Shown: positions 16,251 through 62,975, counted from the first letter of the stretch. The stretch: 64,000 nt of DNA from a virus (UHGV-1558314); one strand, 5' to 3'. Made by a program: numbers and translations. Notes: generated by a model not told the origin, from the letters alone.

Positions 16251-16262
16251 TTGTACAACATG
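16251..16262 (-). promoter_or_regulatory. TTGTACAA promoter box upstream of gp55-like gene
   Basis: ttgtacaaca at 16251-16260, about 34 nt upstream of ATG 16221. Confidence 0.4.
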
Positions 16263-16287
16263 CAAAATGTTTTTGCACCATTTTGAT

Positions 16288-16356
16288 ACAACATGCATTG
16301 CATATTTGCAATGATGCAAAGTACGATGTACACAACATGCATTGCATATTTGCAAT
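16288..16356. repeat. Two direct copies of a 25-bp element
   Basis: acaacatgcattgcatatttgcaat at 16288-16312 and 16332-16356, between a terminator and the promoter box. Confidence 0.6.
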
Positions 16357-16357
16357 C

Positions 16358-16392
16358 ATAAAAAAGCTCAGCCAATTACGGCTGAGCTTTCA
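16358..16392 (-). terminator. Putative intrinsic terminator after 16438..17727
   Basis: Stem aagctcagcc/ggctgagctt (16364-16389) preceded on plus strand by A5, giving a T-run on minus strand. Confidence 0.5.
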
Positions 16393-16437
16393 TTGAGATG
16401 CAACTTTTACGTTGACAGCAAACCTAACTATGTTCGG

Positions 16438-19369: not shown

Positions 19370-20662
19370 CTACAACAATGACGGCACTCGTTGAGTTTCA
19401 AGTGGGTCGCTGACATTGATGCCTGTGTATGCAACAAGTCGTTGTATTGGGCCAAGTACGAGTTTTTCGAACATGAGTCGTTTGTTCATTGGCGGCACAT
19501 CTGGCATATACTTCGGTGTCGGCATTTCGCCTGGTGCAAAGCCAAATGCATCGCAATATTGACGAGAGCCAATTGGGATATTTGACAAATCTGACTTTGC
19601 TCTGTCAACAAAGTAGTAGAACACTCGACCGCCTTCAATCAATGGGTATCGTGTTTCCAATCCATGAGCTTTTACAAGACGATTATGCCAACAACATGCC
19701 CTGTACTGAGGCAGTACACCTTTTGCTAACTGCCATTCGCCATCATAGCTTAACACATAGTCATGATACTTGTTTGCATTGACATATGCACAAAGTTTTT
19801 CCAAGTCTTGCTCAGCTTCAAAGCGTTTCCATAATTTCTGTATGAGCTTTGGATATGTCGCAGAAGTCAATTCACCTCTGAACATTTTTTTGAATGCATA
19901 ATCAAGCATTTGCCTAACAAGCATTGATGAGCCTGTTTGAATAAGTTCGATGCCCTTACCTTGAATATGCTCAGTAGGGTCTTCAAATACTCGACCATCT
20001 ACATATATTTGAGACTTCAAATACTTTTTCTTTTGGGCAAATAATGCAGTATCAGAAATCGTCTCAAGGTCGAACATTAGCACAGAATCTCCATGACGCT
20101 TTGCAAGGTCATTTGCATATGACCTATTGAACAGTTCTTCCATACGATATTTGAATATCGCAAGAATCAAGTCATACCAATTTTTGCCTGTGTAACCAAT
20201 TGACTTAACTGTCGGCTCAAAGTGAATGTACAAAGAGTCTGTGTCAATATACAGCACTTTGTCTTCATAGGGTTCTTGCTTTGGCGACACAGACAAATCA
20301 AAATTGCCTTTCAATTTGGGGTCATTGCGCAGCTTTTCATGCAATTCATAATCACACCACCATTTATTGTTGAGATAGTCATTTGCTACTCGTTCGCCAA
20401 AGTGAATGAAGTTACGCCCTTCTGCAGTAATTGATTCTGCAACTGCCATATTGAAGAAGTGATAGAATCGATTACTTGTCGCACCATAAATACTGTTCCT
20501 TAGTGTTTTGAACGTCACCTGCAATGACGCATGTTTAAGCGACTCTTGTATTGCAAAGCCACGTAATTCAAATAGACGCTCAGTAGACAACTGACTCAAA
20601 TCGCCAGTTAAATCTACTCCATCTATTTCAATTTTTGACATGTCTATCTGAGCTTCTGCCAT
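19370..20662 (-). CDS. Family-B DNA polymerase, C-terminal fragment (motifs B and C)
   Basis: KTLRNSIYG (motif B, Kx3NSxYG) and YIDTDSLY (motif C, YxDTDS). ATG start, TAG stop. Confidence 0.8.
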   Translation of the reverse strand: MAEAQIDMSKIEIDGVDLTGDLSQLSTERLFELRGFAIQESLKHASLQVTFKTLRNSIYGATSNRFYHFFNMAVAESITAEGRNFIHFGERVANDYLNNKWWCDYELHEKLRNDPKLKGNFDLSVSPKQEPYEDKVLYIDTDSLYIHFEPTVKSIGYTGKNWYDLILAIFKYRMEELFNRSYANDLAKRHGDSVLMFDLETISDTALFAQKKKYLKSQIYVDGRVFEDPTEHIQGKGIELIQTGSSMLVRQMLDYAFKKMFRGELTSATYPKLIQKLWKRFEAEQDLEKLCAYVNANKYHDYVLSYDGEWQLAKGVLPQYRACCWHNRLVKAHGLETRYPLIEGGRVFYYFVDRAKSDLSNIPIGSRQYCDAFGFAPGEMPTPKYMPDVPPMNKRLMFEKLVLGPIQRLVAYTGINVSDPLETQRVPSLL

Positions 20663-20684
20663 AAGGTATCTTATTTAATTATTA

Positions 20685-20724
20685 TTGTACAACACACATT
20701 GCAATTTTGCAATATGTGTGTTAA
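20685..20724 (-). promoter_or_regulatory. Promoter box plus adjacent palindrome upstream of polymerase C-terminal gene
   Basis: ttgtacaaca at 20685-20694 followed by near-palindrome acacacattgcaa..ttgcaatatgtgtgtt. Confidence 0.35.
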
Positions 20725-20758
20725 ACAAAAATGCAGCAGCAGAACATCTGCTGCTGCA
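20724..20758 (-). terminator. Putative intrinsic terminator after 20802..21629
   Basis: Stem gcagcagcag/ctgctgctgc (20733-20757), loop aacat; A-run on plus strand upstream gives T-run on minus. Confidence 0.5.
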
Positions 20759-20801
20759 TCGGCAGGTATCTTCACATGTATTTGAGTTGATTACGATGTG
20801 A

Positions 20802-21629
20802 TTAGAATGGCAGGTCACCATCGTCACCTGCAGCGCCAAATTCAGCTGCAATGTCATATACCAACGTCATTGCGATTCGCAAATCGCGCTTCTTAGACTT
20901 CAGGCGCATGATATCATGACCAGAATTGTTTGTGATGACTGAACATTCAAACTCTTCATTGCCATCAATAAATGACAACATTGATTTGTGAATTGTGATT
21001 GGCGATAAATCAGATGGGTAATTTGCATCAATCACATATTCAAAGTTGTTGTTCTTGGCAATTAGTCCTCGTTCAGTCGTACGAATCTCAATGCCGGGCA
21101 ATTCCTTATCACCAGTATTCAATGAGCCATACGATGACATGATGCCAAAGTGATTTGACGTCAAATCGAGTTTTCTTAGATTTGTTGTGCTGTCAAACAA
21201 CATTGACATATCATTGTCAGACAGCTCAAAGTAGCCAAGTGATGGCATTGAACAAACCTGATTGATTTTGAGCTGATTGTTTGAGATTACAATGAGCTCT
21301 GCAATTGTATCTGTGCCAATTTGTTTGACATAGATTTCAATCATTGCAGATGAGCCAAATGCAGCAAGTACTCGATTGTTAAACTGTGTGCCGTTGTAAA
21401 TGAGCGCCTTGACTGTGACATCTTTGAGCGTCGACTCATAATGCTCACAAATATCAAGAACATTGAGCGTCTGTGATTTTACAAAGCTGCTGTTGCCAGC
21501 ATCAGTTCTGATTCGCTGGTCATTAAGTGAAAAGCTAAGCTTGCCATCGCACTTTAATGATGATGCAAACAATGCTCGCAGCATATCAATGTTTGCATTG
21601 CGTAACGTAATTTTGTTCAAAGTTTCCAT
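20802..21629 (-). CDS. Hypothetical protein (275 aa); weak resemblance to a sliding-clamp-like processivity factor
   Basis: Sits between polymerase fragments; acidic C-terminus ending DDGDLPF. Function not supported by motifs. Confidence 0.25.
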   Translation of the reverse strand: METLNKITLRNANIDMLRALFASSLKCDGKLSFSLNDQRIRTDAGNSSFVKSQTLNVLDICEHYESTLKDVTVKALIYNGTQFNNRVLAAFGSSAMIEIYVKQIGTDTIAELIVISNNQLKINQVCSMPSLGYFELSDNDMSMLFDSTTNLRKLDLTSNHFGIMSSYGSLNTGDKELPGIEIRTTERGLIAKNNNFEYVIDANYPSDLSPITIHKSMLSFIDGNEEFECSVITNNSGHDIMRLKSKKRDLRIAMTLVYDIAAEFGAAGDDGDLPF

Positions 21630-21697
21630 CTTGTATCTATGTTGTTGATTTTCAATTTAATATATTGAACAACATTTGTTGACATTTTGCAACATTG

Positions 21698-22933: not shown

Positions 22934-22949
22934 ATTCAATTATTGTTAT

Positions 22950-22972
22950 TATATGTTGATATTGTACAACAT
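22950..22972 (-). promoter_or_regulatory. Recurrent promoter box (coding-strand ATGTTGTACAATATCAACATATAAT)
   Basis: Plus-strand tatatgttgatattgtacaacat; TATAAT-like element ~10 nt downstream of the box on the minus strand. Confidence 0.45.
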
Positions 22973-22975
22973 GTG

Positions 22976-24175
22976 TTAACTTTTTGCATGACCACAATCA
23001 TACACCGCAACATAGCCAGCATCAATCATCTCTTGCTCATCTTGTCCGCAATCTTCAATATGTTCTTTTGTCTTCAAATGACACCAGTGTTTGCGAATTG
23101 TTGACTTGTCATCTGACAATTGCGGATTGAGTGCGAAGTCAGTTGAGTCTACTGGTTCACCTGCAAGATGCTTTCTAATGACATCAATGACAACATCAAA
23201 TGGCATCCAGTCAAACACTGTAATGCAAGTGTAGCTGTGTTTGATAGCAAGTTGTGTTTTGTTAAAATGGTTGTCATATGGTCGTTGCCAATTATGATTT
23301 GCATTGAACACAATATTTGCAAAACTACGCGTGCTATTATGAGAAATAGTTGGGTTAAGTTCAATTAGCAACTTATGCGATTTGCAAACAATGTCATATG
23401 ACAATGACGTGTTCTCAAATGTAAATTCTTGCTCAAAATGCACATCAAGGTTATCAAATAGCATGTTAAGCCTTGTGCATATTTTTGTATTGTGTGCAGA
23501 CTTTGCTTTAGATTTTGCTCTGCATTGAGGCAATTGGCATGGCCACACTACACCATGACGTGACAATGTTGTTGCACGAATTGCGTCAAGATTCGTTGAT
23601 GGATTGCCATATCGAGCTATTCGAGTTTGCCTTGCTTTGTCTATATTGCCTGGGCCTGCATTGCCCCATCGCTGCAACTTTGTTTGTCGAGCTTGTTCAT
23701 GATTGCTGTAATATGGGTCTCCATATCGTTCAAGCTTTGTTTGCTTTAACTTACTCATGTCGCCAAGCCCATTGCCATACTTAGCACGCTTTGTTTCTAT
23801 GCCTTTCTTTAGATTGCCTCGTTTGTTGCCATATTTTGCAATGTTGTGTGCATTACGTTTTTCAATGTCACCAAACCCATTGCCATATCGTGCAAATTTT
23901 GTTGCTTGCGCTTTTTCAAAATTGACTGCTAATGTGCCATAACGAGCATACTTAGTTGCTTTGCCCTTATCAACGACTTCTTTACGATGCAATGCAGCTT
24001 CAACACCATATTTTCGCAAATTTGTAATTTTTGCATTGTATCGTCGTCTAATTGTTGCATGAGTGTTGTTACGAGACCCTGTTCTGACATATTCAGTTGC
24101 AGCAAGTTCAGCATCACGTAACTGCTCAAGTTCTGCAATTCGTTGTTCAAGTTCAGCGCCTACAAGTGGTTTCAT
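22976..24175 (-). CDS. Homing-endonuclease-like protein with ~18-aa basic tandem repeats (intact paralog)
   Basis: About eight repeats of K-x-x-A-T-K-x-A-R-Y-G-N type; N-terminal coiled coil; C-terminal YDIVCKSHKLLIELNP resembles a PD-(D/E)XK-like core with N in place of K. Located between the two DNA polymerase fragments. Confidence 0.45.
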   Translation of the reverse strand: MKPLVGAELEQRIAELEQLRDAELAATEYVRTGSRNNTHATIRRRYNAKITNLRKYGVEAALHRKEVVDKGKATKYARYGTLAVNFEKAQATKFARYGNGFGDIEKRNAHNIAKYGNKRGNLKKGIETKRAKYGNGLGDMSKLKQTKLERYGDPYYSNHEQARQTKLQRWGNAGPGNIDKARQTRIARYGNPSTNLDAIRATTLSRHGVVWPCQLPQCRAKSKAKSAHNTKICTRLNMLFDNLDVHFEQEFTFENTSLSYDIVCKSHKLLIELNPTISHNSTRSFANIVFNANHNWQRPYDNHFNKTQLAIKHSYTCITVFDWMPFDVVIDVIRKHLAGEPVDSTDFALNPQLSDDKSTIRKHWCHLKTKEHIEDCGQDEQEMIDAGYVAVYDCGHAKS

Positions 24176-24183: not shown

Positions 24184-25689
24184 TTACAATTTGATTGCGC
24201 CTCTACGAGCAAGCTCTTCTTCAATCAATCGAACATGATTGTTAGAATACCAGAACTGAATTTTTTTGTGATAATTACGCTTGTCTCCAAGTTCTTCCTG
24301 TACTGCTTTGTACATGCTTTTTTCATGATTGTCATACAAGCAGTCATTAACGGACACAAAGTACTCTGGCAATGACTTGTAATGCGCAATTTCATCAGGA
24401 TTTGTCAGACGTCTGATAAAGTTATCCGGTGATACATTGCATGATTTCATTGAACTTGGATAGAGTGAATTTGCATCAACACAAACAACTTTATGAGCCC
24501 AATGGTTAAATGGTTGCTTCACAAAGCCACCTTCAAATGCATGCACAACATTTTCTGGACCGCCTTGAGCACATACGACTTTGCCACCATATTTGTTGTA
24601 CAAATATGTCATCATGACGCCCTCAGATTGCTTAACTGGGCCTTGACAGTGGTTCATATCAATGTTTGACACATTTGACAAGCCCATCACATTTGATATC
24701 AAGTCAGTTTTTGCAGCAATCATCGCATTGACCATCGTATCGACAGCATTATATGCAATGAACGTGCATGGATGATACAAATACAGCTCTTTAAGTGTAC
24801 AATCATAGGGCAGCTTACCTACACCGAACATACGATGTGCAATATAGTCAAGTCGCAATGACTCTTTTTGCCACACTGAATAGTCGTATGTGTCCATGAG
24901 CTGCATGTAGTCATCAATGTACTTGTGATATGGCATACCATTGCCCCAGACAGTTCTGCCAACTGGAGATGCCAATGCTAAATCAATATTGTGCATTGCG
25001 CATCGATTTTTGACATAGATGTTGTCGAAGCCATTGATGTTCCAGCCTGTCAATGCAGGAATGTTTTTGAAGAGCTTAGTCACCCAAAAATGCAACAATT
25101 CATGCTCATTTGCATGTTGAAAGATTTTGACAGTTGGATGTTCTTTCAAATACGCAGCAAAGCAATGTTGACCCATGTACTCTTGAATGATGCCATTGAC
25201 AAACTCAAATGCATCATCCAGTGTTGGGTTTTGTTTGCCACAGCTTTTGCGCAAATCATCATCATTCAACAAGTCAACAGTAGTCTGAATGACACAATTG
25301 CATTGTTCATCGCATGTACTTATTGCATTAATGGGCATTTCAGCTTTGTCAGGCTTTGGAAAGCCATTGCCAATTTCAGTCTCAATATCGTAAAAGTATA
25401 ACTTTGGTCTACGATAAGCAAACAATTCAACTTTGTCAGCTTCAGGCAATTCAAATAAGAATTGCAGCAAGTCAAATTGATTGAATCGTTTTGCTGTGAC
25501 TCGAGTCACAGGCAATTTGCGCCAATCTTGAATATCTGCATATTGCGGCTCTACATGGTCTGATATTTGCCATACTGGAAATTGATATGGCTGTTCACAG
25601 ACTGGGTATGTTTTGATGTCAATGCCACCTTGCTCATTAACGTATGAAACTTCAATGCCATGTGACAAATATGCTACGTCGACAATCAT
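24184..25689 (-). CDS. Family-B DNA polymerase, N-terminal fragment (3'-5' exonuclease motifs and motif A)
   Basis: Exo I FYDIETE, Exo II NINGFDNIY, Exo III YNAVD, motif A VDANSLYPS. Track start 25725 is TTG; first ATG 25687-25689 used. Confidence 0.8.
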   Translation of the reverse strand: MIVDVAYLSHGIEVSYVNEQGGIDIKTYPVCEQPYQFPVWQISDHVEPQYADIQDWRKLPVTRVTAKRFNQFDLLQFLFELPEADKVELFAYRRPKLYFYDIETEIGNGFPKPDKAEMPINAISTCDEQCNCVIQTTVDLLNDDDLRKSCGKQNPTLDDAFEFVNGIIQEYMGQHCFAAYLKEHPTVKIFQHANEHELLHFWVTKLFKNIPALTGWNINGFDNIYVKNRCAMHNIDLALASPVGRTVWGNGMPYHKYIDDYMQLMDTYDYSVWQKESLRLDYIAHRMFGVGKLPYDCTLKELYLYHPCTFIAYNAVDTMVNAMIAAKTDLISNVMGLSNVSNIDMNHCQGPVKQSEGVMMTYLYNKYGGKVVCAQGGPENVVHAFEGGFVKQPFNHWAHKVVCVDANSLYPSSMKSCNVSPDNFIRRLTNPDEIAHYKSLPEYFVSVNDCLYDNHEKSMYKAVQEELGDKRNYHKKIQFWYSNNHVRLIEEELARRGAIKL

Positions 25690-25700: not shown

Positions 25701-26111
25701 TTAGAATAGAGATATTGTACAACAATTTGATTCAGGTTGCCATTCTACAATATGCGCATCAAAGTGTTTGTTAAGCCAATGTGCAAGTATGTGTCTATGA
25801 CAAAATGCAGATGGTCTGCACCAACATAACAATACAATGTCTCGTTCGCCTGCAAAAATCTTTATGCGATGCAGCATCAAACTTATCTGTGACAATGCAG
25901 CGTCAAGTTTTGCTGCATATTGCTCTGCATATTGTGCATTGTCAAGCAAGCCTGCTTTATGCAAACGAACAAGTGACATGTAATCAGGCATGACGTCAGT
26001 CCATGTAAAATCTGCTATGAAGCCCTTAGGCTTTGTTGCAGACACTTGAACAAGAAATGCGTTATCAGGCAGATGCCTGCATGCATAATATGAAGTCAAG
26101 ATTCTTGTCAT
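25701..26111 (-). CDS. Small protein with C-x-x-x-x-C-H-R motif (DUF488-like?)
   Basis: LLCWCRPSAFCHRHILAHWL; family assignment from memory only. Confidence 0.3.
   Translation of the reverse strand: MTRILTSYYACRHLPDNAFLVQVSATKPKGFIADFTWTDVMPDYMSLVRLHKAGLLDNAQYAEQYAAKLDAALSQISLMLHRIKIFAGERDIVLLCWCRPSAFCHRHILAHWLNKHFDAHIVEWQPESNCCTISLF
25711..25726 (-). promoter_or_regulatory. Promoter box upstream of polymerase N-terminal gene
   Basis: attgtacaaca at 25714-25724, embedded in the 3' end of the upstream gene. Confidence 0.4.
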
Positions 26112-27763: not shown

Positions 27764-27795
27764 CTTATTTATGATTTGATGTCTTGTATTTATAT

Positions 27796-27816
27796 TATAT
27801 GTTGATATTGTACAAC
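27796..27816 (-). promoter_or_regulatory. Recurrent promoter box
   Basis: Plus-strand tatatgttgatattgtacaac; minus-strand context TTGTACAATATCAACATATAATATAAATAC. Confidence 0.45.
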
Positions 27817-52400: not shown

Positions 52401-53339
52401 TGTGACCTTTGACTTGATTTTGATTTTATTGATGCGGCCAGGGTTGATGAGTGCAATCTTGTCTGTTTTGACATCATTATCAATTGTGATTGTATGATAA
52501 TGCACAAGCTGCTCAAGTGGATGCCACTCTACCACAATTCGCTTGTTGTCAATATCGATGTCAAGCAAGTTGTAGCCATGTTCTGCAGTACCATGCTGTA
52601 TTGCAGTGTCATTCAACAAATAGTCGCCTTCACCAAAATCTCTGACAATTGGCGAGCCGCAATATGTTAATGTCTTATCACCAGCAACCCATATTGCATG
52701 CTTATGAATGTCACCCATTGCAACAAAGTTGCTATTAAATTGCATTGCATCTATACGACTGTCATTGTCACCACGAACAATACAATCATCAAAGTTGACA
52801 CAATTCTTTACAGGGTCATGGAACAGCTCAATGACACACATTGATGACAATGCTGCAATCTGCGATTCATCAAGTGATGCCCAAGGCGAATATGTGCCAC
52901 CAGACCACTTCTCATTTTGAGCCCATACTGCAGCAGCAAAACCAGGTGCAAGCAGTTCAACTCTTGAACTGTTGATATACTTGATTCGCTTGTCATCAAT
53001 TGCAGTTACAAGCTTGTCAATGCTATCTGTCCACTGCATTTGTGAACCATCACCAGCATCAAATGTGTTATCACGTTGCTTCAAATCATGATTGCCAGCA
53101 GTAATGACAATTTGAAGCTTGTCATTGACTTCAAGCATGCCTTTGAGCAGCTTAACAAACAGCGACTCTTCAAGTGAATTGCTATTCCAATGCTCAAACA
53201 CGTCGCCGACAATGAATACAAACTCAACTGACTTTGCTTTGTCAATTAGTTGTTTGTTGATGTGCTCATATTCTACGAAACGTCGTAAATGACCTTGTCG
53301 AACATTATATTGAATGTCTGCTATGTGAAGTGCTTTCAT
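49413..53339 (-). CDS. Fused Mre11/SbcD-like nuclease and Rad50/SbcC-like ATPase (1308 aa)
   Basis: N-terminal phosphoesterase motifs (LHIADIQ, IVGDVFEH, TAGNHD) resemble recalled T4 gp47; then Walker A GNNGNGKTT, long coiled coil, zinc hook CPVCTNDL, C-terminal LLIDEISGKL. Confidence 0.65.
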   Translation of the reverse strand: MKALHIADIQYNVRQGHLRRFVEYEHINKQLIDKAKSVEFVFIVGDVFEHWNSNSLEESLFVKLLKGMLEVNDKLQIVITAGNHDLKQRDNTFDAGDGSQMQWTDSIDKLVTAIDDKRIKYINSSRVELLAPGFAAAVWAQNEKWSGGTYSPWASLDESQIAALSSMCVIELFHDPVKNCVNFDDCIVRGDNDSRIDAMQFNSNFVAMGDIHKHAIWVAGDKTLTYCGSPIVRDFGEGDYLLNDTAIQHGTAEHGYNLLDIDIDNKRIVVEWHPLEQLVHYHTITIDNDVKTDKIALINPGRINKIKIKSKVTKPELSGIVERIAQNLVSSYVVAAIDILYDSAVIDSINAVDANGDNLLQKVQTAEWLKDAALDWVNAYIERNAIVATEDAQQFVDMFKSLIDEQIDKLSFDTEVAKYVIQNVKANQFMALKDVDVSFDNLAQLTQVRGNNGNGKTTIFRLIKWLLTGFIDAEQSSAATKQNALTYFNDKLIDNESYDKLEASCVFVHVVAGQNVHYKLIRTLERKFKRGSRINADGSWRDNVSAVNETVQLVRLSDDYVVPQHEIKDTLYAIFGSIWELSRYVCINQTLLDQIIAMDSNSLNDWLLDTLGINTFVQLGNSNDAAKAALFDGLSKPALTDVAIKAELESLNTTCNELNYSLQLRQDNQKEWSAKLTKARAKVEELSKKLHQIPADILTIEDATANIDGIIAKIHKVELDIAALALQDMSKLQTAKAQIEQQLTNIDNEANTAYTNVIASGSQLHNTYAELLTKQNELSAKVQKEVAHAESLYRTKLDESKLAYDAAKQHIDSVLINLGKSYNANTRAKIDALQKQIEDINTVQNALRTEISAAKTNIDNVIDKQKQLENDKCPVCTNDLTSGTGQAYKLWLSTELAKLRQECAQKTEQFNENVVKIGNLKYEIEQLQAAIIDVTDSNAIIAALNPAHKAAYDMHAEKLNDLQRTVVNAQRDLDAFIAQPMATAATLLEVEAVKMQIADITNQLADIKRKAEQAKQDVLQSKSTVESELAAINAELEIAQAEYDKKATYESALKQLEIDKTAAAFALEHAQQTQQHITTNAALQVDIDDAKQHETEANSKLLSINAEIATMQADLSANNVRIEALKKDLQASKKWNIANLVYNAYKQCTSKRGLVSYVFAAIATSLNAQLNDLLDSLNYRVFFDINDNNVLKMIDLMGSKSIRSVSQMSGMEGTFAGLAIVHLILTQRLNKVGNILLIDEISGKLSNGQIVGAEHDVNNINYQQVLMQLLTKLSAIRKTLIVDHVLQQDEFDSALTVVANTDGTSSIC

Positions 53340-53341
53340 AT

Positions 53342-53383
53342 TCTAAATGAGATTTAGATTATATGTTGATATTGTACAACATG
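53342..53383 (-). promoter_or_regulatory. Promoter box plus conserved leader hairpin upstream of Mre11-Rad50 fusion gene
   Basis: Minus strand GTTGTACAATATCAACATATAATCTAAATCTCATTTAGAAT then ATG. Confidence 0.45.
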
Positions 53384-53418
53384 CAAAATGCACTTGCATT
53401 TTGATACAACGTATGTCA

Positions 53419-53766
53419 TTATTTTGCAAGCATTTTGCTGATTGCATCTATCACAGTTTCACTGAGCAAGTAGTAGACAACGCTTATCAGCAATGATATC
53501 AGTACTGCAGCTGTGATAAATTGCAACGCATTCACAATTGCACGCACAAATGTTATCTGTGTGTTGTATGCAAGCACTATGCAGCATAGCACAATAATGA
53601 CACACCAGACTACAATTGCATATGCAGGCATCAATGAATTTGTCCATATGCAGTACAATACAGTAGTTAGCATCAAAAATGCTATTGCTCTGATGACTGA
53701 CACAATGATGTCTATGTAGAGCTTCATTACACGTAAATGAACTCTTGGCTTATGCGGTTTCATCAT
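53419..53766 (-). CDS. Small multi-pass membrane protein
   Basis: Start at ATG 53764-53766 overlapping upstream stop (ATGA); three hydrophobic helices. Confidence 0.35.
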   Translation of the reverse strand: MMKPHKPRVHLRVMKLYIDIIVSVIRAIAFLMLTTVLYCIWTNSLMPAYAIVVWCVIIVLCCIVLAYNTQITFVRAIVNALQFITAAVLISLLISVVYYLLSETVIDAISKMLAK

Positions 53767-54995
53767 GACTTTATGTACAATTCTGCAAGTTGTCTGGTGT
53801 ACAATCGTGGATTGTGATATGCTTTCCAATATGCAGTAGACTTTATTGCAGCAAGAATCTCATCATAATGTTTGACTGCTTTTGCTACAACTTCATCAAG
53901 TACATGCAAATCTTCTACACTAACAAGCAGCCATTTTTCTACAATGTCAATGAATTCTTGATTGCAATTAAAGCCATATTTGTAGTTGCAAGTGTCAAGT
54001 ACAAGTGGGATGCAGTCATTTGTCAGTGCTTCAAAAAATCTACGAAGACTGAAACAATTCTCATCATATGATGGAATGCTTAATGTAAACTTGGCAGTCT
54101 TGATGAGTTGCAAATACTCTTCGTATGGAATCAGAGGACCATTGTGCTTCCACTGATTGTTATGTCGTCTTGTTGTGTACTTGAACAAAAACTTTGAACT
54201 GTCAAGCTCACAAAGATGGTCCATGCGTAAAATGTAGTTATAGCGGTCTCTTCTATCAGGCCAACTGTCAGTCATTGCAAACACAAAGTCTCTTTGCTTG
54301 TCACATTTTGCTGACATACCTCTATGCTGACACATGCAGTACCAATATTGCTGCGATGGACTGAACTCGAACTTTGAGTGATGCTCACTGCCATCTTTGC
54401 ATTGTTGAACGTAAATATTGTCAGGCACAAAGTGAAAGTAGAAATGTCGAATTTGCAAGCCGTCAATGTAGTCAAGCTTATGCTGCAATGGGTCCTCACA
54501 GAAATTGTAACACTGAATGCGTTTTGCTGCAGCATACTCAGCAACTATGAATGTGCACACCCATTGCAATGCGATGTCTTCACTCTTCAAAAAGTCAACA
54601 AGTGGCTCATTTGGATGCGCTTTGCATTCATTGAACATTTTGTACCACTTGCATTGCTCCATGTCATACTTGGAGACTGTATTGCCATTAAAAAATGACA
54701 CAGTATCAATTTTGAATGCCTCAAGTTGTTTATGCACAATGTCGATTGCTTGTGCATATGTGACAGTCTCATCAGACATTATTTGTGCAAACTTGATTGG
54801 ATGCGCATGCAAATTTGCAATTGTGTCTGCTGACATTTTGCGCTGTGTATGATAATCGACATACAAAAACTGACACTTGTCTGTAAGCAATTCAAGCATT
54901 GCTACAGATTTCCATCGAATTGCTTGAAAGAAATTGAAGTGCGCAGTTTGAAAAATGAGATGCGTAGGCTTGTCAGAATGAGTCAAAGTTTGCAT
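53763..54995 (-). CDS. Glycosyltransferase-like protein (GT-B-type C-terminal motif), paralog B'
   Basis: IPSYDENCFSLRRFFEALTNDCIPLV resembles GT-B donor-binding motif; paralogous to 58026..59582 (shared EDPLQHKL, PSQQYWY). Track start is TTG; ATG at 54993-54995 used. Confidence 0.45.
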   Translation of the reverse strand: MQTLTHSDKPTHLIFQTAHFNFFQAIRWKSVAMLELLTDKCQFLYVDYHTQRKMSADTIANLHAHPIKFAQIMSDETVTYAQAIDIVHKQLEAFKIDTVSFFNGNTVSKYDMEQCKWYKMFNECKAHPNEPLVDFLKSEDIALQWVCTFIVAEYAAAKRIQCYNFCEDPLQHKLDYIDGLQIRHFYFHFVPDNIYVQQCKDGSEHHSKFEFSPSQQYWYCMCQHRGMSAKCDKQRDFVFAMTDSWPDRRDRYNYILRMDHLCELDSSKFLFKYTTRRHNNQWKHNGPLIPYEEYLQLIKTAKFTLSIPSYDENCFSLRRFFEALTNDCIPLVLDTCNYKYGFNCNQEFIDIVEKWLLVSVEDLHVLDEVVAKAVKHYDEILAAIKSTAYWKAYHNPRLYTRQLAELYIKS

Positions 54996-56158
54996 GGACA
55001 AATGTCGCAGTTATGTTGATGTTTGTGTTTATTTATGAAGTCATATGTCACTGCAAAAAAGTGCTTTGCAATGTCATATCGAGTTTTCAAATATGCTGCT
55101 TGTCGTTCACAAAATGCTGCATAAATATCTGGGTGTTGTTTGAATGCTGCAATGCGTTGCTGTACTTGTTCTGCAGAATGCACATATGACACTTTGCTCA
55201 AATATACATCATCTGCAAATAATCGTTTGTCTTTGTCAACTGCGCAATCAACAAAAGTTGCAATTCGTGCAACAATTGCTTCACCGACACGATTTGGTAT
55301 TAGCCCATATTGCTCATATTGCTGTTCGCCGATAGCAATGTGTGCTGCTGCATATGACATTGCATATGGCACACTATAAAATGGCACACTAAAATCAAAT
55401 GAACAATTTGACTGCAGCAATTGTGTTTGTGCATCAGACAATCTACTTGTCAAGTTGCCTGTATATTTGTGCTCACCAAGAAAACTTGAGCGACAGCCTG
55501 AATCTACATAGTATCGAATGACTTTGTTTATGCGACTGTCAGATAGCATATGCCAATCTCTTGTAGCATATATCAAGTCTACTGTTTTTGCGCCAATATG
55601 ACGAGGCTCTATCGCAACATTGCTGTATGTTGGCAGCATAAACAATGGCAGCCATTTGACATTGTTGAACACTGAATGCTCATTTGACAAATTCATGCAC
55701 TGGCTAAGTTCAAGTACTGGCTCATCATACACGCCATGTAGCTCAACTCTGCCTGCATGCACAAAGTTGACACGCTTAAATGGAAATCGCATATCAGTGC
55801 AAACTGTCATTCTTGCTGCAATAGACATTCGCCACATAGCATGCAGCTTAACAACTGCTTCTGCTTGAGGTCGAGGCAACATATTTAGCAAATCAATCCA
55901 GCCGCCCCACAAAATCCAAACATCATTTGAACAGATGTTGAATTGCAAACTCAATATGTCTTCTACTGTTGTAGCAATAATGTCATGCCCATTGATGCTT
56001 GCAAGGTGTTTTCGTTGATTTGCAATAATAATGACTTGACTGAATGGAGACTCTGGAAATGACACAAGCGCTTTTGCAAACAACACGGGTTCTTGCGACA
56101 CCAAGTTGTTTGAGTATGGGTCGATTATGCAATCAAGCTTGTGTATGAAGAGTCTCAT
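54983..56158 (-). CDS. Hypothetical protein (391 aa), paralog A' of 59579..60745
   Basis: Shared N-terminus MRLFIHKLD vs MSKLFILKFD and TDMRFPF vs TDLRFDF; sits immediately upstream of a GT-like gene. Confidence 0.4.
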   Translation of the reverse strand: MRLFIHKLDCIIDPYSNNLVSQEPVLFAKALVSFPESPFSQVIIIANQRKHLASINGHDIIATTVEDILSLQFNICSNDVWILWGGWIDLLNMLPRPQAEAVVKLHAMWRMSIAARMTVCTDMRFPFKRVNFVHAGRVELHGVYDEPVLELSQCMNLSNEHSVFNNVKWLPLFMLPTYSNVAIEPRHIGAKTVDLIYATRDWHMLSDSRINKVIRYYVDSGCRSSFLGEHKYTGNLTSRLSDAQTQLLQSNCSFDFSVPFYSVPYAMSYAAAHIAIGEQQYEQYGLIPNRVGEAIVARIATFVDCAVDKDKRLFADDVYLSKVSYVHSAEQVQQRIAAFKQHPDIYAAFCERQAAYLKTRYDIAKHFFAVTYDFINKHKHQHNCDICPCKL

Positions 56159-56889: not shown

Positions 56890-57136
56890 ATAACGTTATA
56901 TCATATCTACACACAAAGCAAATGCTACTGCAAGTGCAGCCATAATTGCATATACGACTATCGATGCAGTATAATCTGATTCAGGATTCCACTTATCAGG
57001 TGTGTTAAGCTTGTGATACTTGTCTCGTCTCATCTTGAGTCAAAAAATGATGGCTGCTGCTACATTTTGTGAAATCATGTGCAGCAGCCATCTGGCAGGT
57101 TTCTTGCTTTGTAAAGCTTGGATAGAGGATGGATTT

Positions 57137-57195
57137 TATATGTTGATATTGTACAACATGCAAAATGTATTTGCATTTTGATACAACATATATTG
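57137..57195 (-). promoter_or_regulatory. Promoter box with adjacent palindrome
   Basis: tatatgttgatattgtacaacatgcaaaatgtatttgcattttgatacaac, near-identical to 53360-53410. Confidence 0.45.
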
Positions 57196-57411
57196 TCATT
57201 TTGCACAGTCTGATGCAATTAAATCTTTGTCAAAGCATTCATCTATAATGTCTTCAATAAGATACGCTTCGACATTGTTAAGCTTCAAGATATCTACGAG
57301 TTTTGCTTTGATATCGCAAGCTAATGCAGATTCGACTGTATGCAATATGACTGATGATACGACATGCTTGTCTGTCATCATTTGTAATTGCTGTGGTGTT
57401 ACTCTACTCAT
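57196..57411 (-). CDS. Small acidic hypothetical protein (71 aa)
   Basis: ATG start overlaps Tmk-like stop (ATGA). Confidence 0.3.
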   Translation of the reverse strand: MSRVTPQQLQMMTDKHVVSSVILHTVESALACDIKAKLVDILKLNNVEAYLIEDIIDECFDKDLIASDCAK

Positions 57412-58025: not shown

Positions 58026-59582
58026 TCATTGCACTTCTACGAATGGCTCTTTCAACACAAAGCTGTCACCATTGCAACATGCGGCTGAGCCATCGTCTGC
58101 ATCAAGTGCGCATGACATATCAGACTTGCAGAACTTGCAATATGAACATGACCATGCATGACTCATAAAGTTGTTTGCTTCACAAATTACACAGCGCTCA
58201 TGTGAAAGTGTATTGTCGCAATTGTCACAAGACTTCTTGATTGGCACATCTTTATTGATATATGCAAGATGCAATGCAATATCATACACAAAGTCACCCG
58301 TATATTGCTGAATGAAATCAGTGTGCCACAACTCTTTTAACAATTGTGTATGTCTATATGGCTGAACAATGTCTTCAAGATGCTGCAAGTCATCATCGCT
58401 AACCATGAGCTTCTTAATGACAAACTGTTTGAACTGCGGCCATCTGTCAAACATATAGAGTTTGCATGAGTTGTGCACAAGTGGAACACAGCCAAGCACA
58501 ATGCTTTCACAGAATCTACGCAAACTAAAACAGTTTGCATCATATGACGGCACAATCAATGTGAATCTGCTATGCTTGATGAGTTCAAGGTATGTGTCAT
58601 ATGGCAGTAGCTTGTCTGACAATGGCTGCTGTTGCTTGTCCCTGCTGAAAAATCTGAACACAATGCCTTTATCAATTGCATCTTGATTGTGCAGATGCAT
58701 GAGTTTGTTGATGAGTTCTGTGCGTTCAGTTTTGTCTCGCCAAGTATTCGTCAATGCAAATGCAAAATTCAGTCGCTTGTCATCAAACGTCGCTTCAATG
58801 TCATCCCAAGTTTTGTCATGCAAATACCAGTATTGCTGTGATGGGCACCATCCATAATATGCAATAGCGTCTTGTTCTGCTGTAACGTCATACACATATG
58901 CAGAATTGTATTCAAGGCCAAGCCCTTTGACATTGTTGCAGTCATGAAAGTACCAATGCTGCACTTTGAATATCTTTGATGCACTGAATGCGCTTTCATA
59001 TGGCCCTGAATAGCGATAGTCAATGTAATTGAGCTTGTGCTGCAATGGGTCTTCGACAAAGTTGTTTATGACTGTGCCTTGTTGTTTGCCATTAGTCTTG
59101 CGAGCATTCAATGCAATATTGTACTGCATAATGACTGACAGCATCTCATACACTACATACATGAGTGCTTTGTAGACTGAGCCTGCTGCGTCAATTAGCG
59201 GCAAATCACGTTTGACTGATGCAGTACCAAATGTCTTGCAATATGCAGAAAATGTATCAAGTTCTGCCTGTTGAAATGAATTGCATGCGCCATTGAATAT
59301 GTTGAATGTTGCAATGTAGCTCATATTACAAGATGTCATTGACATATCAAGACGCTTCATAATGTCAGCAATGCGACATTGAGCAAAATCTGACACATCA
59401 ACATATTTGACATGATGACCTGATGCAGTCAAGCCAACTGCGACTTCTTTCATTTGTGGCACAAAGCCTACTACAATGAACAAGTCATCTTTGTTTGCTC
59501 GTTCAAACATTGCTGCACTTTTCCAAGTCAATGAATTGAAAAAGTCTATGTAGCCAGTCTGTGTGATGATATGTGTTCTCAT
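58026..59582 (-). CDS. Glycosyltransferase-like protein (GT-B-type C-terminal motif), paralog B
   Basis: VPSYDANCFSLRRFCESIVLGCVPLV; C-terminal Cys-rich extension (CDNCDN...CVICE...CSYCKFC). Confidence 0.45.
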   Translation of the reverse strand: MRTHIITQTGYIDFFNSLTWKSAAMFERANKDDLFIVVGFVPQMKEVAVGLTASGHHVKYVDVSDFAQCRIADIMKRLDMSMTSCNMSYIATFNIFNGACNSFQQAELDTFSAYCKTFGTASVKRDLPLIDAAGSVYKALMYVVYEMLSVIMQYNIALNARKTNGKQQGTVINNFVEDPLQHKLNYIDYRYSGPYESAFSASKIFKVQHWYFHDCNNVKGLGLEYNSAYVYDVTAEQDAIAYYGWCPSQQYWYLHDKTWDDIEATFDDKRLNFAFALTNTWRDKTERTELINKLMHLHNQDAIDKGIVFRFFSRDKQQQPLSDKLLPYDTYLELIKHSRFTLIVPSYDANCFSLRRFCESIVLGCVPLVHNSCKLYMFDRWPQFKQFVIKKLMVSDDDLQHLEDIVQPYRHTQLLKELWHTDFIQQYTGDFVYDIALHLAYINKDVPIKKSCDNCDNTLSHERCVICEANNFMSHAWSCSYCKFCKSDMSCALDADDGSAACCNGDSFVLKEPFVEVQ

Positions 59583-60745
59583 GATTTGAATGTTTGTTCA
59601 AGAATTGTGTAACACTGCACAATCATTACTGCAAGAGCTTTTTGCTGTGCTTGTTTGCAATCATCAAAATTTGTGGGCGCAGTGCGTACGCGTGTTTTGC
59701 TATTAAGTGTCGCAAATGTCGCGTAGTCATCGAAGCCTATAATGTCAGCAAATAGGGCAATTGGCTTATAATCTACAAGTATGTTGCAGCAATTTGCAAG
59801 TACGCCTTCAACCCATCGATTTGGCAGCAAGTCTGCTTGCACATACAATGAATCACCAACTACAAGATTGTATGCCGACTGTGACATTACACGCGGCATT
59901 GCATCGTATGTGACTTTGTATTTAAGTGTAAAGTTTGGTGCTGCTGATTTAATCGCAGACAAAATTGTGTCATCAAGATATGATGTTATGAGACACGTGT
60001 CGCACATATGTATGACAAATTGTTCAATCACACTTCTACGATACTCGTCAAGATATGTGAAACCTGCACAACTTGCACAGCATGCATATTGCTGCTTTAT
60101 GTCAGCAAAGCTACGCACATGAGCTTCAATTGCATTTTGCATCGTTACTTGTAGTTTAAGCAATCTTGGCTCTTTAATGTATTGAAGCTTCAATGCATTG
60201 ACTGCTGCAATGATTTGCAATGGGGCAAACACACATTGAGACTCATCAAGCCAAGCGTATTTGAGATTTTTGTGCTGGCATAGATGCGTAATGTTGTCTT
60301 TTTGTGATTCTAAGTACTCTTTGTAATTGTGCAATCGCTTTGTCAATGTGCATTCTTTATCAAAGTCGAATCGCAAATCAGTTGTTAGTGTAAATTTGCG
60401 AGCGTTTGACAAACACCATGTTTTGAATGCATTCCACAGAACATCTTGCTGAAATTCTGAGCAATGTTCAAGAGCAGCCTTTGAACCTTGCCAGAATATT
60501 GCGCAATCATCTGATTTTGCGCACTTCAGCATATCTTGCCATGCATGTATGTTATTGATAATATGCACATTATCATACACAAGCTCATCAAGTATTGCAT
60601 GCTTGTTCTCAGGGTCGCCAAACACATATACAGCATCAAACATTGTCTGCACAAAACCTGCAAATGCAATAGGTTCTGTATGCTTAAGATGCTGTACGTC
60701 TGAACGCACGCATGTGTCAAATTTCAAAATGAATAGTTTGCTCAT
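59579..60745 (-). CDS. Hypothetical protein (388 aa), paralog A
   Basis: ATGA overlap with downstream GT-like gene; paralogous to 54983..56158. Confidence 0.4.
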   Translation of the reverse strand: MSKLFILKFDTCVRSDVQHLKHTEPIAFAGFVQTMFDAVYVFGDPENKHAILDELVYDNVHIINNIHAWQDMLKCAKSDDCAIFWQGSKAALEHCSEFQQDVLWNAFKTWCLSNARKFTLTTDLRFDFDKECTLTKRLHNYKEYLESQKDNITHLCQHKNLKYAWLDESQCVFAPLQIIAAVNALKLQYIKEPRLLKLQVTMQNAIEAHVRSFADIKQQYACCASCAGFTYLDEYRRSVIEQFVIHMCDTCLITSYLDDTILSAIKSAAPNFTLKYKVTYDAMPRVMSQSAYNLVVGDSLYVQADLLPNRWVEGVLANCCNILVDYKPIALFADIIGFDDYATFATLNSKTRVRTAPTNFDDCKQAQQKALAVMIVQCYTILEQTFKS

Positions 60746-61442
60746 ATACTTTGCAATTATCTATTACATGTTGATATTGTACTTCATCTATGATGTGATT
60801 TGCAATGACACCATATGAGGCGTCATACATTGGCATCTTCTCATATGACAATGCTGCGTCAAGATTGCATATCACATAATTGCAATGCACAATGTCATCT
60901 ACATTGTCACTAACTGCTACGATATTGACACACTTTGCAAGAAATGCATCATCAAAGTCTACTTGATTGCATGCAACCTCATAATCTGCTGCGCTTCTTG
61001 GGTACCAATATAACTCAATGCCAGCACTACTAAGTAGTCGCAAGCCATCTATGTGATGATACAAGTCAACAAAATGCACTTGCTTAACGCCTGCTTGCAA
61101 AATAAGCTTTGCGCAATCAATGCATGGACTGTATGTTACATACAGCACTGCGTCATTTGCGGTCGCATTGCCATATTTGCACAGCTTCATCAATGCGTTT
61201 GATTCTGCATGCAAAACTTCTTTGTTGGTTTTGATACCTGCCGATGTTGCATGCTCACAACAATTTGACATGCCAGTTGGCATGCCATTGTAGCCATCTG
61301 AAATTATGCAACCATTTTTTACAAGCAATGCGCCAACTTTTGCTCGCTGAGCATATGAATTTAATGACCAAAGCTCAGCCATTTTAAGATATATGAGATT
61401 TCGTTGAAACTGCTTTGTTTCAGACCAAGTTAGCCATTTCAT
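60717..61442 (-). CDS. dCMP deaminase (zinc-dependent cytidine/deoxycytidylate deaminase family)
   Basis: HAESNAL ... SPCIDCAKLI zinc-binding motifs. Confidence 0.7.
   Translation of the reverse strand: MKWLTWSETKQFQRNLIYLKMAELWSLNSYAQRAKVGALLVKNGCIISDGYNGMPTGMSNCCEHATSAGIKTNKEVLHAESNALMKLCKYGNATANDAVLYVTYSPCIDCAKLILQAGVKQVHFVDLYHHIDGLRLLSSAGIELYWYPRSAADYEVACNQVDFDDAFLAKCVNIVAVSDNVDDIVHCNYVICNLDAALSYEKMPMYDASYGVIANHIIDEVQYQHVIDNCKVYEQTIHFEI
60766..60785 (-). promoter_or_regulatory. Promoter box embedded in 3' end of dCMP deaminase gene
   Basis: acatgttgatattgtacttc about 25 nt upstream of ATG 60745. Confidence 0.35.
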
Positions 61443-61446
61443 ATGC

Positions 61447-62829
61447 TTACAGTGAGTTTATAATTTTGATAAAGTCTGTTACAATGTTTGTATGCAACTC
61501 AATGAGATAGTTGTCTTGTAATGTCATAAGCTCATCAAGTTCATCTACACTTAATGACTTGAAGACTTCTGCACAATGCTTGGCATTTTTGATGTGTGCG
61601 ACTTTATGATACTTGATAAAGTCAGGACACACACAATTATTCACGTACATACAAGGCAAGCCTGCAAGCATTGATTCAGTTGCTCTGAATGTAATTGCGT
61701 TGCATTGTTTCATATTCTCTTCACACACAATGTATGCAAAGTCGAACTGCGACAAGTATGTTAACATGTCAAAATACTTGATTGTGCCATTATAGACATG
61801 TGGCATATCAATGTCGATATTGCCGACAACATGAGTTTCGATGTCTGCGCAGCCAAGCAAATCAATGACTTCTTGTTTGCGTTCAGCGCACATGTCATTC
61901 CAAGCAACCATCGGCATTGCAGTAGTCAACTTGCCTGATTGCAATTTTGCTAAACGTTTTTCGTTATGTGATGCATACAATGGAATGCCTTCAAGTCTTG
62001 CATGCTGAATTGTGTTGACATTGATTTCTGTCAGCATTGACAACGCATTATGCATGTTCTGTGCTTGTGTGACAACTGTCATCTTTTTGCAGCGCAATCT
62101 AAAGTTTGCAATGTGTGGCACGAGTCGTAAATCATACCACAGCCATACAATGTCACCCTTCCATGACTCAATAAGCTGCTTGTGCTGTTTGTAGATGACT
62201 GACTGACTCATCAAGTCATTCATTGCTGAGCATACAATGTACAACACACCATATTTGTCAATTGAGTGCTGCACATAGTCAACTGAGCAGCATAGCACAT
62301 CTTTGTCGAAAAGTTTTGGGTCATGCACTTCTGCATCATCTACAATAAGATGTGCCTTGTATTGATGCTGCTTTGTTGCATCAATGATGCGAGCAATTGC
62401 AAAGCATTCTCTACTTTGAATGTCTGTCTTATCTTGTCGTGGTTGGTCTTGTGTTCGTACAGGATATGCAGGCTTAAGTATTACAGGCACAAAATGTGTT
62501 TTTGCAGAATATGGTGCATCTACTGCAGCAAACTCCGCGTTGCATCGTTGTGAATGCAGATGTCGTGCATATGATTGCAACAATTCATGAATCATTGCAA
62601 TGTACTCTTTCAATTCAAACAGCTCGTGTACAGTTGCGTTTGTTATGTCGACTACGACAGTTTGTCGCACAATTGGATACACACAAATAACGTAATCATT
62701 ATATGATAGTGGAATGCCTATAAATGCTGAGCATCTGTTTCGAAGCCATGCAATGCAATCAGCGTCAAACACAATTTCATATTGCTGCTGCAAAGCATTT
62801 AATTGCGCTATAATCAAATCATTGTGCAT
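61447..62829 (-). CDS. Hypothetical protein (460 aa), possible third glycosyltransferase-like protein
   Basis: C-terminal FDFAYIVCEENMKQCNAITFRATESMLAGLPCMYV loosely resembles the same GT-B motif. Confidence 0.3.
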   Translation of the reverse strand: MHNDLIIAQLNALQQQYEIVFDADCIAWLRNRCSAFIGIPLSYNDYVICVYPIVRQTVVVDITNATVHELFELKEYIAMIHELLQSYARHLHSQRCNAEFAAVDAPYSAKTHFVPVILKPAYPVRTQDQPRQDKTDIQSRECFAIARIIDATKQHQYKAHLIVDDAEVHDPKLFDKDVLCCSVDYVQHSIDKYGVLYIVCSAMNDLMSQSVIYKQHKQLIESWKGDIVWLWYDLRLVPHIANFRLRCKKMTVVTQAQNMHNALSMLTEINVNTIQHARLEGIPLYASHNEKRLAKLQSGKLTTAMPMVAWNDMCAERKQEVIDLLGCADIETHVVGNIDIDMPHVYNGTIKYFDMLTYLSQFDFAYIVCEENMKQCNAITFRATESMLAGLPCMYVNNCVCPDFIKYHKVAHIKNAKHCAEVFKSLSVDELDELMTLQDNYLIELHTNIVTDFIKIINSL

Positions 62830-62846
62830 ATTCGTATTGTTTTATC

Positions 62847-62975
62847 ATATATGAATATATTGTACAACATGTATTGAGCTTTTGCACAACATATGTTGTT
62901 AAAATATCATCATTGTACAACATAAAGCGCATATTTGCACGTTGTGTTGCTAAAAATATTGTTATTGTACACAAA
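62847..62975 (-). promoter_or_regulatory. Promoter region with three copies of the TTGTACA(A) box
   Basis: atatattgtacaacatg (62857-62872), cattgtacaacat (62911-62923), ttattgtacac (62962-62972). Confidence 0.4.

Follow-up and report, generated by a model that had tools for sequence, protein, structure and literature searches.

Promoters repeated many times and conserved beyond need, along with terminator-promoter cassettes, are a known feature of T4-like phages (PMC2988021, PMC4122927). In T4 itself, middle promoters carry a MotA box, (a/t)3TGCTTtA, which is centered at -30, lies 12 +/- 1 base pairs (bp) from a sigma-70 -10 element, and works through MotA/AsiA sigma appropriation (PMC2988021). 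Here, we analyze a repeated box, TTGTACAA, in UHGV-1558314, a stretch of viral DNA of 64,000 nucleotides (nt) that we refer to as the window. The original prediction read this palindrome as a MotA-box-like activator site in front of a separate -10. Comparison of the sites with one another and with their counterparts in related genomes makes it likely, instead, that TTGTACAA is the extended -10 of a two-part promoter with the geometry of the sigma-70 family, and that these promoters form a pre-late class of a T4-like myovirus.

Recurrence, anatomy, and conservation of the box

The recurrence of TTGTACAA is real: it occurs 15 times in 64 kb (2.86 expected), a count reached by none of 100 shuffles, and the longer TGTTGTACAATAT, at two or fewer mismatches, matches 23 times (5.45 expected). 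Twelve of these 23 matches are intergenic and on the minus strand (16248, 20682, 21662, 22959, 25712, 27805, 29684, 42647, 53369, 57146, 62857, and 62910), and a position-matrix scan returns 13 sites along with weaker tandem copies, every one of them on that strand, in agreement with the at least eleven such sites originally predicted. The 13 matrix sites all read along the coding strand, in gaps between genes or at gene ends, and no matrix match scoring 10 or more exists on the plus strand of the window, which bears out the view of the box as a strand-specific, gene-oriented promoter element. Nor is the motif equally frequent in coding DNA: intergenic DNA makes up 8.4% of the window yet contains 9 of the 15 exact TTGTACAA cores (binomial P = 6.5e-7), and the six bare cores within genes (24596, 31901, 32126, 34236, 37395, and 40690) lack the flanking conservation. 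Motif discovery by unbiased 7-mer enrichment, as the prediction would have it, places words of the box (TGTTGTA, ATGTTGT, and GTTGTAC) at the head of the intergenic list, with GTGCAAA also at the top. Matches to the exact bipartite pattern in IMG/VR, besides those in a sister genome, have no similarity to the window (one sequence common to five contigs and one single-contig match), and the literature yielded nothing relevant on TTGTACAA as a promoter.

Aligned in coding orientation, all 13 sites share the form (G/A/T)TGCAA(A), 17 nt, then TA(C/A/T)(A/T)AT. The spacer ends in a conserved (A)TGTTG, and the palindromic box is composed of TTG plus TACAA, so that it contains the -10-type hexamer TACAAT. 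When TGCAA-N(k)-TA[CT]AAT is scanned for k from 10 to 24, eight minus-strand matches fall at k = 17 (about 0.5 expected; none on the plus strand), and every other k gives zero to two. The upstream element (nTGCAA, once TGGCAA) stands exactly 17 nt from the hexamer at 13 of 13 matrix sites, contradicting the earlier statement that the box lies about 10 nt upstream of the true -10, without a 17-nt sigma-70 spacing. Among the hexamers (TACAAT at nine sites, TAATAT at two, TATTAT and TTCAAT at one each), T-12 and T-7 are invariant and A-11 is kept at 12 of 13 sites, the exception being TTCAAT. These three bases are the contacts of region 2 of sigma-70-family factors, and the resulting TAnnnT rule also holds in the sister genome and relatives described below.

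The consensus runs (G/A/T)TGCAA(A), a 17-nt spacer with TGTTG as its last five bases, and TACAAT(AT). RNA polymerase would initiate at the box sites about 7 nt past TACAAT, leaving leaders of about 10 to 50 nt; the distance from hexamer to ATG, 16 to 58 nt at single promoters, is compatible with a start 5 to 9 nt past the -10. The sites, with amino acids abbreviated as aa and family-B DNA polymerase as PolB, are as follows.

16250-16278 (-): predicted promoter; -35 GTGCAA (16273-16278), 17-nt spacer ending ATGTTG, -10 TACAAT (16250-16255); 16 nt before the ATG of the gp55-like late sigma gene
16283-16311 (-): weaker tandem copy upstream of the 16251 promoter; TTGCAA-17-TATCAA, with a third degenerate unit further upstream
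20684-20712 (-): predicted promoter; TTGCAA-17-TACAAT; upstream of the PolB polymerase half (19370-20662)
21664-21692 (-): predicted promoter; TTGCAA-17-TTCAAT; upstream of a 275-aa gene (20802-21629)
22961-22989 (-): predicted promoter; ATGCAA-17-TACAAT, then ATCAACATATAAT (22948-22960); upstream of a 114-aa gene, dUTPase, and MazG
25714-25742 (-): predicted promoter; TGGCAA-17-TACAAT; lies partly within the 3′ end of the gene before it; precedes the PolB exonuclease half (24184-25689)
27807-27835 (-): predicted promoter; GTGCAA-17-TACAAT, then ATCAACATATAAT (27794-27806); upstream of a 189-aa gene (27194-27763)
29686-29714 (-): predicted weaker promoter; GTGCAA-17-TAATAT, then TATAAT, then CATATATTCGAAC; upstream of a 55-aa gene (29388-29555)
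42649-42677 (-): predicted promoter; GTGCAA-17-TAATAT; upstream of two 73-aa genes; terminator hairpin at about 42718-42744
46446-46474 (-): weak member; GTGCAA-17-TATTAT; precedes the helicase gene (44510-46387), whose 26-nt leader is identical to that of the gp47/46 gene
53371-53399 (-): predicted promoter; ATGCAA-17-TACAAT, then ATCAACATATAAT (53358-53370); upstream of the gp47/gp46-like fusion (49413-53339)
53401-53429 (-): tandem upstream copy, read from the sequence; TTGCAA-17-TATCAA
57148-57176 (-): predicted promoter; ATGCAA-17-TACAAT; tandem upstream copy at 57178-57206
62859-62887 (-): predicted promoter with the best matrix score; GTGCAA-17-TACAAT; upstream of a 460-aa gene (61447-62829) and the dCMP deaminase operon
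62912-62940 (-): predicted tandem promoter; GTGCAA-17-TACAAT, 53 nt upstream of 62860; terminator hairpin at 62976-63005
5646-5672 (+): box-like element, doubtful member; TTGCAA-15-TACATA; upstream of a RuvC-like gene (5708-6376)

Two further claims of the original prediction hold in part. The extension toward TATAAT (...ATCAACATATAAT) is real but confined to a minority of sites: exact TATAAT follows TACAAT at a fixed +7 offset at 5 of 13 (22962, 27808, 29687, 42650, and 53372), and TATAAA takes its place at 57149. The plus-strand RuvC-like gene (Pfam RuvC, E = 1.5e-4) was said to carry the same core; its TTGTACAT matches 7 of 8 positions in the right orientation, but TTGCAA (5646-5651) and TACATA (5667-5672) are 15 nt apart, and the element lies outside the 16251-62975 span first given for the box.

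Conservation separates the two parts of the element from the palindrome. The sister genome in IMG/VR is 92 to 96% identical to the window, and syntenic relatives recovered through the polymerase half of PolB share 78%, 52%, and 44% PolB identity. Between the window and the 92 to 96% sister genomes, none of 126 positions in the -35, ATGTTG, and -10 blocks is substituted, versus 37 of 427 in spacer and flanks (one row of this count is probably paralogous; without it, 0/108 versus about 21/366). The bipartite layout, lacking TATAAT at +7, recurs at four more sites of the sister genome that fall outside the window and at two sites in the 9.6 kb beyond the end of the window. At orthologous positions in the 78% and 52% relatives, before the exonuclease half of PolB and the gene of 275/284 aa, we find GTGACA-, TTGTAA-, GTGCAA-, and GTGCAC-17-TACAAT; in the 44% relative, GTGCAA-18-TATAAT precedes the gp55-like gene. 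Among these relatives, the hexamer is preceded by TGTAG, TGTCG, or CATTG. A relaxed pattern in the 52% relative gives four coding-strand matches at spacer 17 and zero or one at other spacers. The palindrome decays in relatives at 52 to 78% PolB identity (GTAGTACAAT, GTCGTACAAT, TGTAGTACAAT, and TGTCGTACAAT), and the downstream TATAAT is not present at their orthologous sites. Selection keeps TG(C/A/T)A-17-(TGTnG)TACAAT, not the palindromic TTGTACAA.

Genes, terminators, and neighboring features

A 175,395-bp metagenomic contig contains the window without a single difference, and the genes of the window lie nearly all on the minus strand. By gene content, the phage is an uncultivated T4-like myovirus of about 175 kb, of gut or environmental origin and distant from T4. 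Pfam and PHROG matches include T4-like markers (a gp20-type portal at 7112-8908, a gp21-type protease domain in a 1316-aa protein, gp2, and a gp13-like neck protein), a replication set (a split PolB, a fused gp47/gp46-type nuclease, and a helicase), and a nucleotide-metabolism set (dUTPase, MazG, two thymidylate-synthase-family genes, and dCMP deaminase). Megablast with 22 kb of the window found no DNA-level match among deposited phages; metagenomes are the only known source of the lineage. Its closest cultured relatives, syntenic at 27 to 36% protein identity, are the Chryseobacterium phages MA9V-1/2, Tenacibaculum PTm1/PTm5, Sphingomonas phage PAU, and the Prevotella Lak megaphages. Protein-seeded IMG/VR searches returned the sister genome only, and searching the GTDB genomes with a PolB alignment gave no relatives and hence no host clue. 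Scans of the window for tRNA and Rfam families found nothing, so the conserved blocks are not known RNA genes.

The sites stand before the polymerase half of PolB, the 275-aa gene, the 114-aa gene with dUTPase and MazG, the exonuclease half of PolB, a 189-aa zinc-finger-like protein, small open reading frames (ORFs), the gp47/46 fusion, and the 460-aa gene heading the dCMP-deaminase operon; the helicase has a weak site. The 166-aa protein behind 16251 matches phrog_234, "late sigma transcription factor" (gp55), at E = 1.3e-8; it has a weak Pfam Sigma70_r2 match (E = 0.005, below the curated cut-off), and its homologue in Chryseobacterium phage MA9V-2 is annotated "sigma-70 region 2." No box precedes the structural genes, namely those for the portal and the protease and the genes of 945, 1101, and 476 aa. 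Since a triple box array precedes the late sigma gene itself, the box cannot be a late promoter, and the served genes (replication plus gp55-like sigma) point to a pre-late class, like the early or middle promoters of T4. Such a class would head operons for DNA replication, recombination, and nucleotide metabolism and, by driving the gp55-like gene, would act before late transcription and be needed for it.

Several copies of the predicted promoter directly follow an intrinsic terminator, and several are tandemly duplicated. At four loci (16251, 20685, 42650, and 62860/62913), a hairpin with a predicted free energy of -16 to -23 kcal/mol and a T-run lies within 130 nt upstream of the promoter, the strong terminators being 12 to 90 nt away; the other sites have none. 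Tandem copies 30 to 53 nt apart occur at 16251, 53372, 57149, and 62860/62913. An identical 26-nt leader, ATAATCTAAATCTCATTTAGAAT(G), precedes the helicase (46388-46413) and gp47/46 (53340-53365) genes, both on the minus strand, whose upstream regions are about 89% identical over 72 nt, and the promoter-leader unit appears to have been copied between them. Features adjoining the sites include the following.

15733-16233 (-): gp55-like late sigma factor gene, 166 aa, behind the 16251 box; phrog_234 match
16362-16391 (-): predicted intrinsic terminator, 13-bp stem and T-run, directly upstream of the 16251 promoter array
20730-20760 (-): predicted intrinsic terminator, 14-bp stem and T-run, upstream of the 20685 promoter
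57049-57092 (-): hairpin and U-run about 50 to 95 nt downstream of the 57149 promoter; -30.1 kcal/mol, z = -4.5

The last of these, which precedes a 45-aa transmembrane ORF (56896-57033) and a 242-aa gene, could be the end of a terminated small RNA of about 95 nt or a transcription attenuator. At 29649-30050, the sole plus-strand gene called in that neighborhood (133 aa, no family match) overlaps the 29686-29714 (-) promoter in its first 22 or so codons and is followed by a bidirectional terminator (30051-30111); either the gene start is mis-called or two signals overlap.

A different word, ATATYCRAA, occurs 10 times (2.9 expected), nine times on the coding strand. Five copies (8920, 33435, 38225, 46410, and 29652, all minus strand) lie 12 to 30 nt, in one case about 97 nt, before the start codons of the portal, the 1101-aa, 476-aa, and helicase genes, and a small gene; similar strings occur in relatives (AATAGATATTCAAAC in one and ACATATCCGAAT in another). 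We take this word as a candidate signal for the gp55-like sigma, either a late promoter or an element near the start site. The idea that the TATAAT downstream of the box is the same element as this candidate late motif gains no support from motif identity: structural genes have ATATYCRAA or TAyAkAT-type strings, not CAACATATAAT. A dual early and late promoter is conceivable.

Other arrangements in the window concern its genes. The exonuclease (24184-25689, -) and polymerase (19370-20662, -) genes of the split PolB are 3.5 kb apart, with five genes between them, including a homing-endonuclease-like ORF of 399 aa (22976-24175); the split recurs in the 44 to 78% relatives, in phage PAU, and in MA9V-2, where a TnpB gene occupies the gap. 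The gp47-like (Metallophos) and gp46-like (AAA_23/SbcC-type) recombination nuclease subunits form a single ORF of 1308 aa (49413-53339, -). Two proteins with a TnsA-like endonuclease N-terminal domain (9054-10172 and 11074-11514, -), one of them also weakly similar to phage endonuclease I, are encoded amid head and neck genes, in an arrangement kept in the 44 to 52% relatives. A modification-type gene set (42764-43822, 47048-47929, 60717-61442, 53763-56158, and 58026-59582, all minus strand) comprises two thymidylate-synthase-family genes, dCMP deaminase, a beta-glucosyltransferase-like gene, and two GT47-like glycosyltransferases and suggests hypermodified DNA, possibly with a glycosylated hydroxymethyl-pyrimidine.

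Rival readings and the factor that reads the box

Some observations weigh against the two-part promoter reading. The upstream hexamer (G/A/T)TGCAA agrees with the E. coli TTGACA at only three to four of six positions, with TG and the last A retained, and a general scan for sigma-70 promoters gave 54 matches versus 42 expected, with the region not enriched and only two of the box sites detected; the element therefore departs from the textbook sigma-70 promoter. Four sites with differing spacers (22962, 27808, 53372, and 57149) have the 22-nt block GTTGTACAATATCAACATATAA in identical form, so about 13 nt after TACAAT also seem to be constrained at those four sites, which a simple -35/-10 model would not explain; possibilities are a polymerase preference for the start-site or initial transcribed sequence, a superimposed gp55-type late promoter, and a regulator site. 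The rest concerns the host. A Shine-Dalgarno core is found in 2 of 63 window genes, whose leaders are A-rich at -14 to -12, -6, and -3/-2; A-rich leaders without Shine-Dalgarno are a Bacteroidota signature, and the Bacteroidota primary sigma reads -33 TTTG and -7 TAnnTTTG, not sigma-70 promoters (PMC6847099). TTTG-N18-22-TAnnTTTG matches the window three times (3.1 expected), never upstream of a gene, and the box, which reads TACAATAT without T-8, T-6, and G-5, departs from the -7 element of the Bacteroidota factor sigma-ABfr, in which T-8, T-7, T-6, and G-5 hardly ever vary; if the host belongs to this phylum, direct reading by its primary sigma is doubtful. Finally, a tblastn search of about 100 kb of DNA from the lineage, with regions 2-4 of E. 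coli RpoD and the Lak sigma as queries, found no sigma with a region 4.

Of the three rivals that give the box another function, the original activator model accounts for part of this. It takes TTGTACAA as a MotA-box-like site near -30, with TATAAT some 10 nt downstream as the true -10 of activator-dependent middle promoters lacking a -35. The identical 7-nt offset of TATAAT (five sites) or TATAAA (one), the constraint that the shared GTTGTACAATATCAACATATAA implies for the TATAAT region at its four sites, and a gene set like the T4 middle regulon (PMC2988021) agree with it, and likeness to middle promoters survives at the level of the genes. It fails in geometry and sequence: TTGTACAA is not the MotA-box sequence and lies 8 to 10 nt from TATAAT, not 12 +/- 1 bp, and the invariant TGCAA, as TGCAAA 17 nt from TACAAT in the position of a -35 or MotA box, is ignored. 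TATAAT is missing at 7 to 8 of 13 window sites, at all four extra sister-genome sites, and in the relatives, and the ATG follows TACAAT by 16 nt at 16251 and 21 nt at 20685, so that a -10 located 7 to 12 nt further down would put the start at or beyond the ATG and leave no space for a second -10 and start site. As to a phage-encoded activator or sigma factor that might bind the box, the window does encode the gp55-like late sigma, but no Pfam match to MotA or AsiA was recorded among genes called in the window, about 3 kb before its start, or 9.6 kb past its end, and PHROG and Pfam scans of 30 unknown proteins gave neither. We regard the activator model as improbable. Even less credible is an operator for a dimeric regulator, or an RNA or DNA hairpin, formed by the palindrome or by the repeat ATGTTG-N8-CAACAT in place of a polymerase element. 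The palindrome is perfect, ATGTTG and CAACAT can pair, and some spacers hold CAAAATG...CATTTTG inverted repeats, yet a palindromic operator does not require a strand bias of 13 to 0, most sites lack CAACAT, the hairpin (-4.8 kcal/mol, z about -1.4) and the spacer repeats (z of -0.3 to -0.5) fold no better than shuffles, and the relatives lose the palindrome while keeping G-TACAAT and TGT; these fold statistics and the loss of the palindrome led us to set the idea aside. An added, non-exclusive role as mobile cassettes, in which terminator-promoter units like the PeSLs (composite terminator/early-promoter motifs) of T4-like phages (PMC4122927) offer short homology for recombination that shuffles modules, has terminators directly upstream at four loci, the tandem duplications, and the shared helicase and gp47/46 leader and upstream region in its favor. 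Most boxes, however, adjoin conserved core genes rather than hyperplastic regions; such a role is unlikely, though far from absurd.

The sigma-70-family reading leaves three candidates for the reader of the box: the host primary sigma, a full-length phage sigma encoded outside the window, and a host sigma remodeled by phage factors. A rival that keeps TACAAT as the -10 has TGCAAA contacted by a phage activator on a remodeled host sigma (as MotA/AsiA in T4) or by region 4 of a full-length phage sigma, and not by region 4 of the primary sigma of the host, which would make the box class a true middle class dependent on an early phage protein. The combination of Bacteroidota-like leaders with a box off the Bacteroidota consensus suggests, without proving, such a factor, and the conserved block of TGTTG plus TACAATAT greatly exceeds a host -10 in length. 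Sigma factors, some RpoD-like, are encoded by every T4-like "group 2" jumbo phage (PMC7824862); 15 of 15 Lak Prevotella megaphages encode a sigma spanning regions 2-4; and the gene set equals the T4 middle regulon. MA9V-2, whose host is Chryseobacterium, has the same leader type (Shine-Dalgarno core in 0 of 43 genes) and a bipartite motif of its own that is also off the host consensus: ATGTC(G/A), 17 nt ending TTAAATT, then TA(C/T)A(C/T)(T/A) (in short, ATGTCR-17-TAYAYW), with five matches versus 1.5 expected, four of them intergenic (8090, 8673, 15972, and 27750 within OR513085.1 130000-170000). On the other side, no full-length phage sigma or activator turned up in the window, flanks, or sister-genome fragments (about 100 kb), and the Lak sigma, searched against 5.8 billion proteins, found Lak-family proteins only, none on a contig of about 175 kb. 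Phage PAU, intended as a Shine-Dalgarno-using contrast, has the core in only 3 of 48 genes (NC_019521.1 80000-112000), so the signature may belong to the phage lineage as such and does not prove that the host is a Bacteroidota member, and the exact 17-nt geometry with TG at -34/-33 is what ordinary sigma region 4 contacts would give. We hold this rival as tentative, and that a phage-specific factor is required at all as conceivable rather than probable. Much the same doubt attaches to the statement that a Bacteroidota host sigma is unable to read the sites and that TGCAAA-17-TGTnGTACAAT is read by a full-length phage sigma or a phage-remodeled host sigma.

The host itself is probably a member of the Bacteroidota. 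Host-type promoters are not enriched in the window or flanks, and TAHHTTTG occurs on the coding strand of intergenic DNA only twice. As observations on the comparison phages, PAU has 31% GC and leaders A-rich at -13/-12, odd for its recorded host Sphingomonas paucimobilis, and in MA9V-2 a second motif, GTGTATA(A/C)TA, precedes the PolB and sigma genes.

With the box read as the extended -10, the sites provide a map of putative pre-late transcription units for an uncultivated T4-like lineage, with probable start positions corrected, and the placement of the late sigma gene under the box class would make an early-to-late cascade readable from sequence alone. The pairing of Bacteroidota-style translation with a non-Bacteroidota-style promoter raises the question of who reads T4-like phage promoters in this phylum. 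Should a phage factor be responsible, the 29-bp element would also give Bacteroidota genetics a compact, orthogonal promoter part, and T4-like phages of Bacteroidota would possess a MotA/AsiA-independent middle-transcription switch with lineage-specific promoter sequences, of which the different 17-nt bipartite motif of MA9V-2 would be a parallel example.

Comparison with known promoter systems

T4-type late promoters, which depend on gp55, consist of a single -10-like element, TATAAATA, need no -35, and precede late and structural genes. The box, in contrast, always comes with an upstream element, is missing in front of structural genes, and would drive the gp55-like gene itself.

It resembles the early promoters of T4 (sigma-70-dependent, with UP, -35, TGn, and -10 elements; PMC2988021) in being bipartite with a 17-bp spacer, in its co-orientation with genes, often after terminators, and in having many near-identical copies whose conservation reaches past the two hexamers. 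Its -35, however, is TGCAAA where T4 has TTGACA/GTTTAC; TGTnG abuts the -10, whereas the TGn of T4 is one base from the hexamer; its genes are those for replication and the late sigma, not host-takeover ORFs; and its sequence is not expected to be read by the sigma of the probable host. With T4 middle promoters (PMC2988021), it has in common a regulon of replication, recombination, nucleotide metabolism, and a late-transcription factor, as well as an upstream TGC-containing element paired with a good -10, but that element is TGCAAA at 17 bp instead of a MotA box at 12 +/- 1 bp, and TTGTACAA, earlier equated with the MotA box, would be the -10 region.

The PeSL cassettes of T4-like phages (PMC2839356, PMC4122927) likewise place a highly conserved promoter directly after a stem-loop terminator, in copies spread around the genome, and the promoter-leader unit apparently copied between two genes is in keeping with them; the box sequence is unrelated, and the sites lie mostly between core genes. 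With the primary-sigma promoters of Bacteroidota (PMC6847099), the box shares a distance of 20 nt from upstream TG to downstream TA and the bases T-12, A-11, and T-7, but TACAATAT lacks T-8, T-6, and G-5, and the upstream element is TGCAAA, not TTTG. Set against these systems, the box promoter is ordinary in kind and new in sequence.

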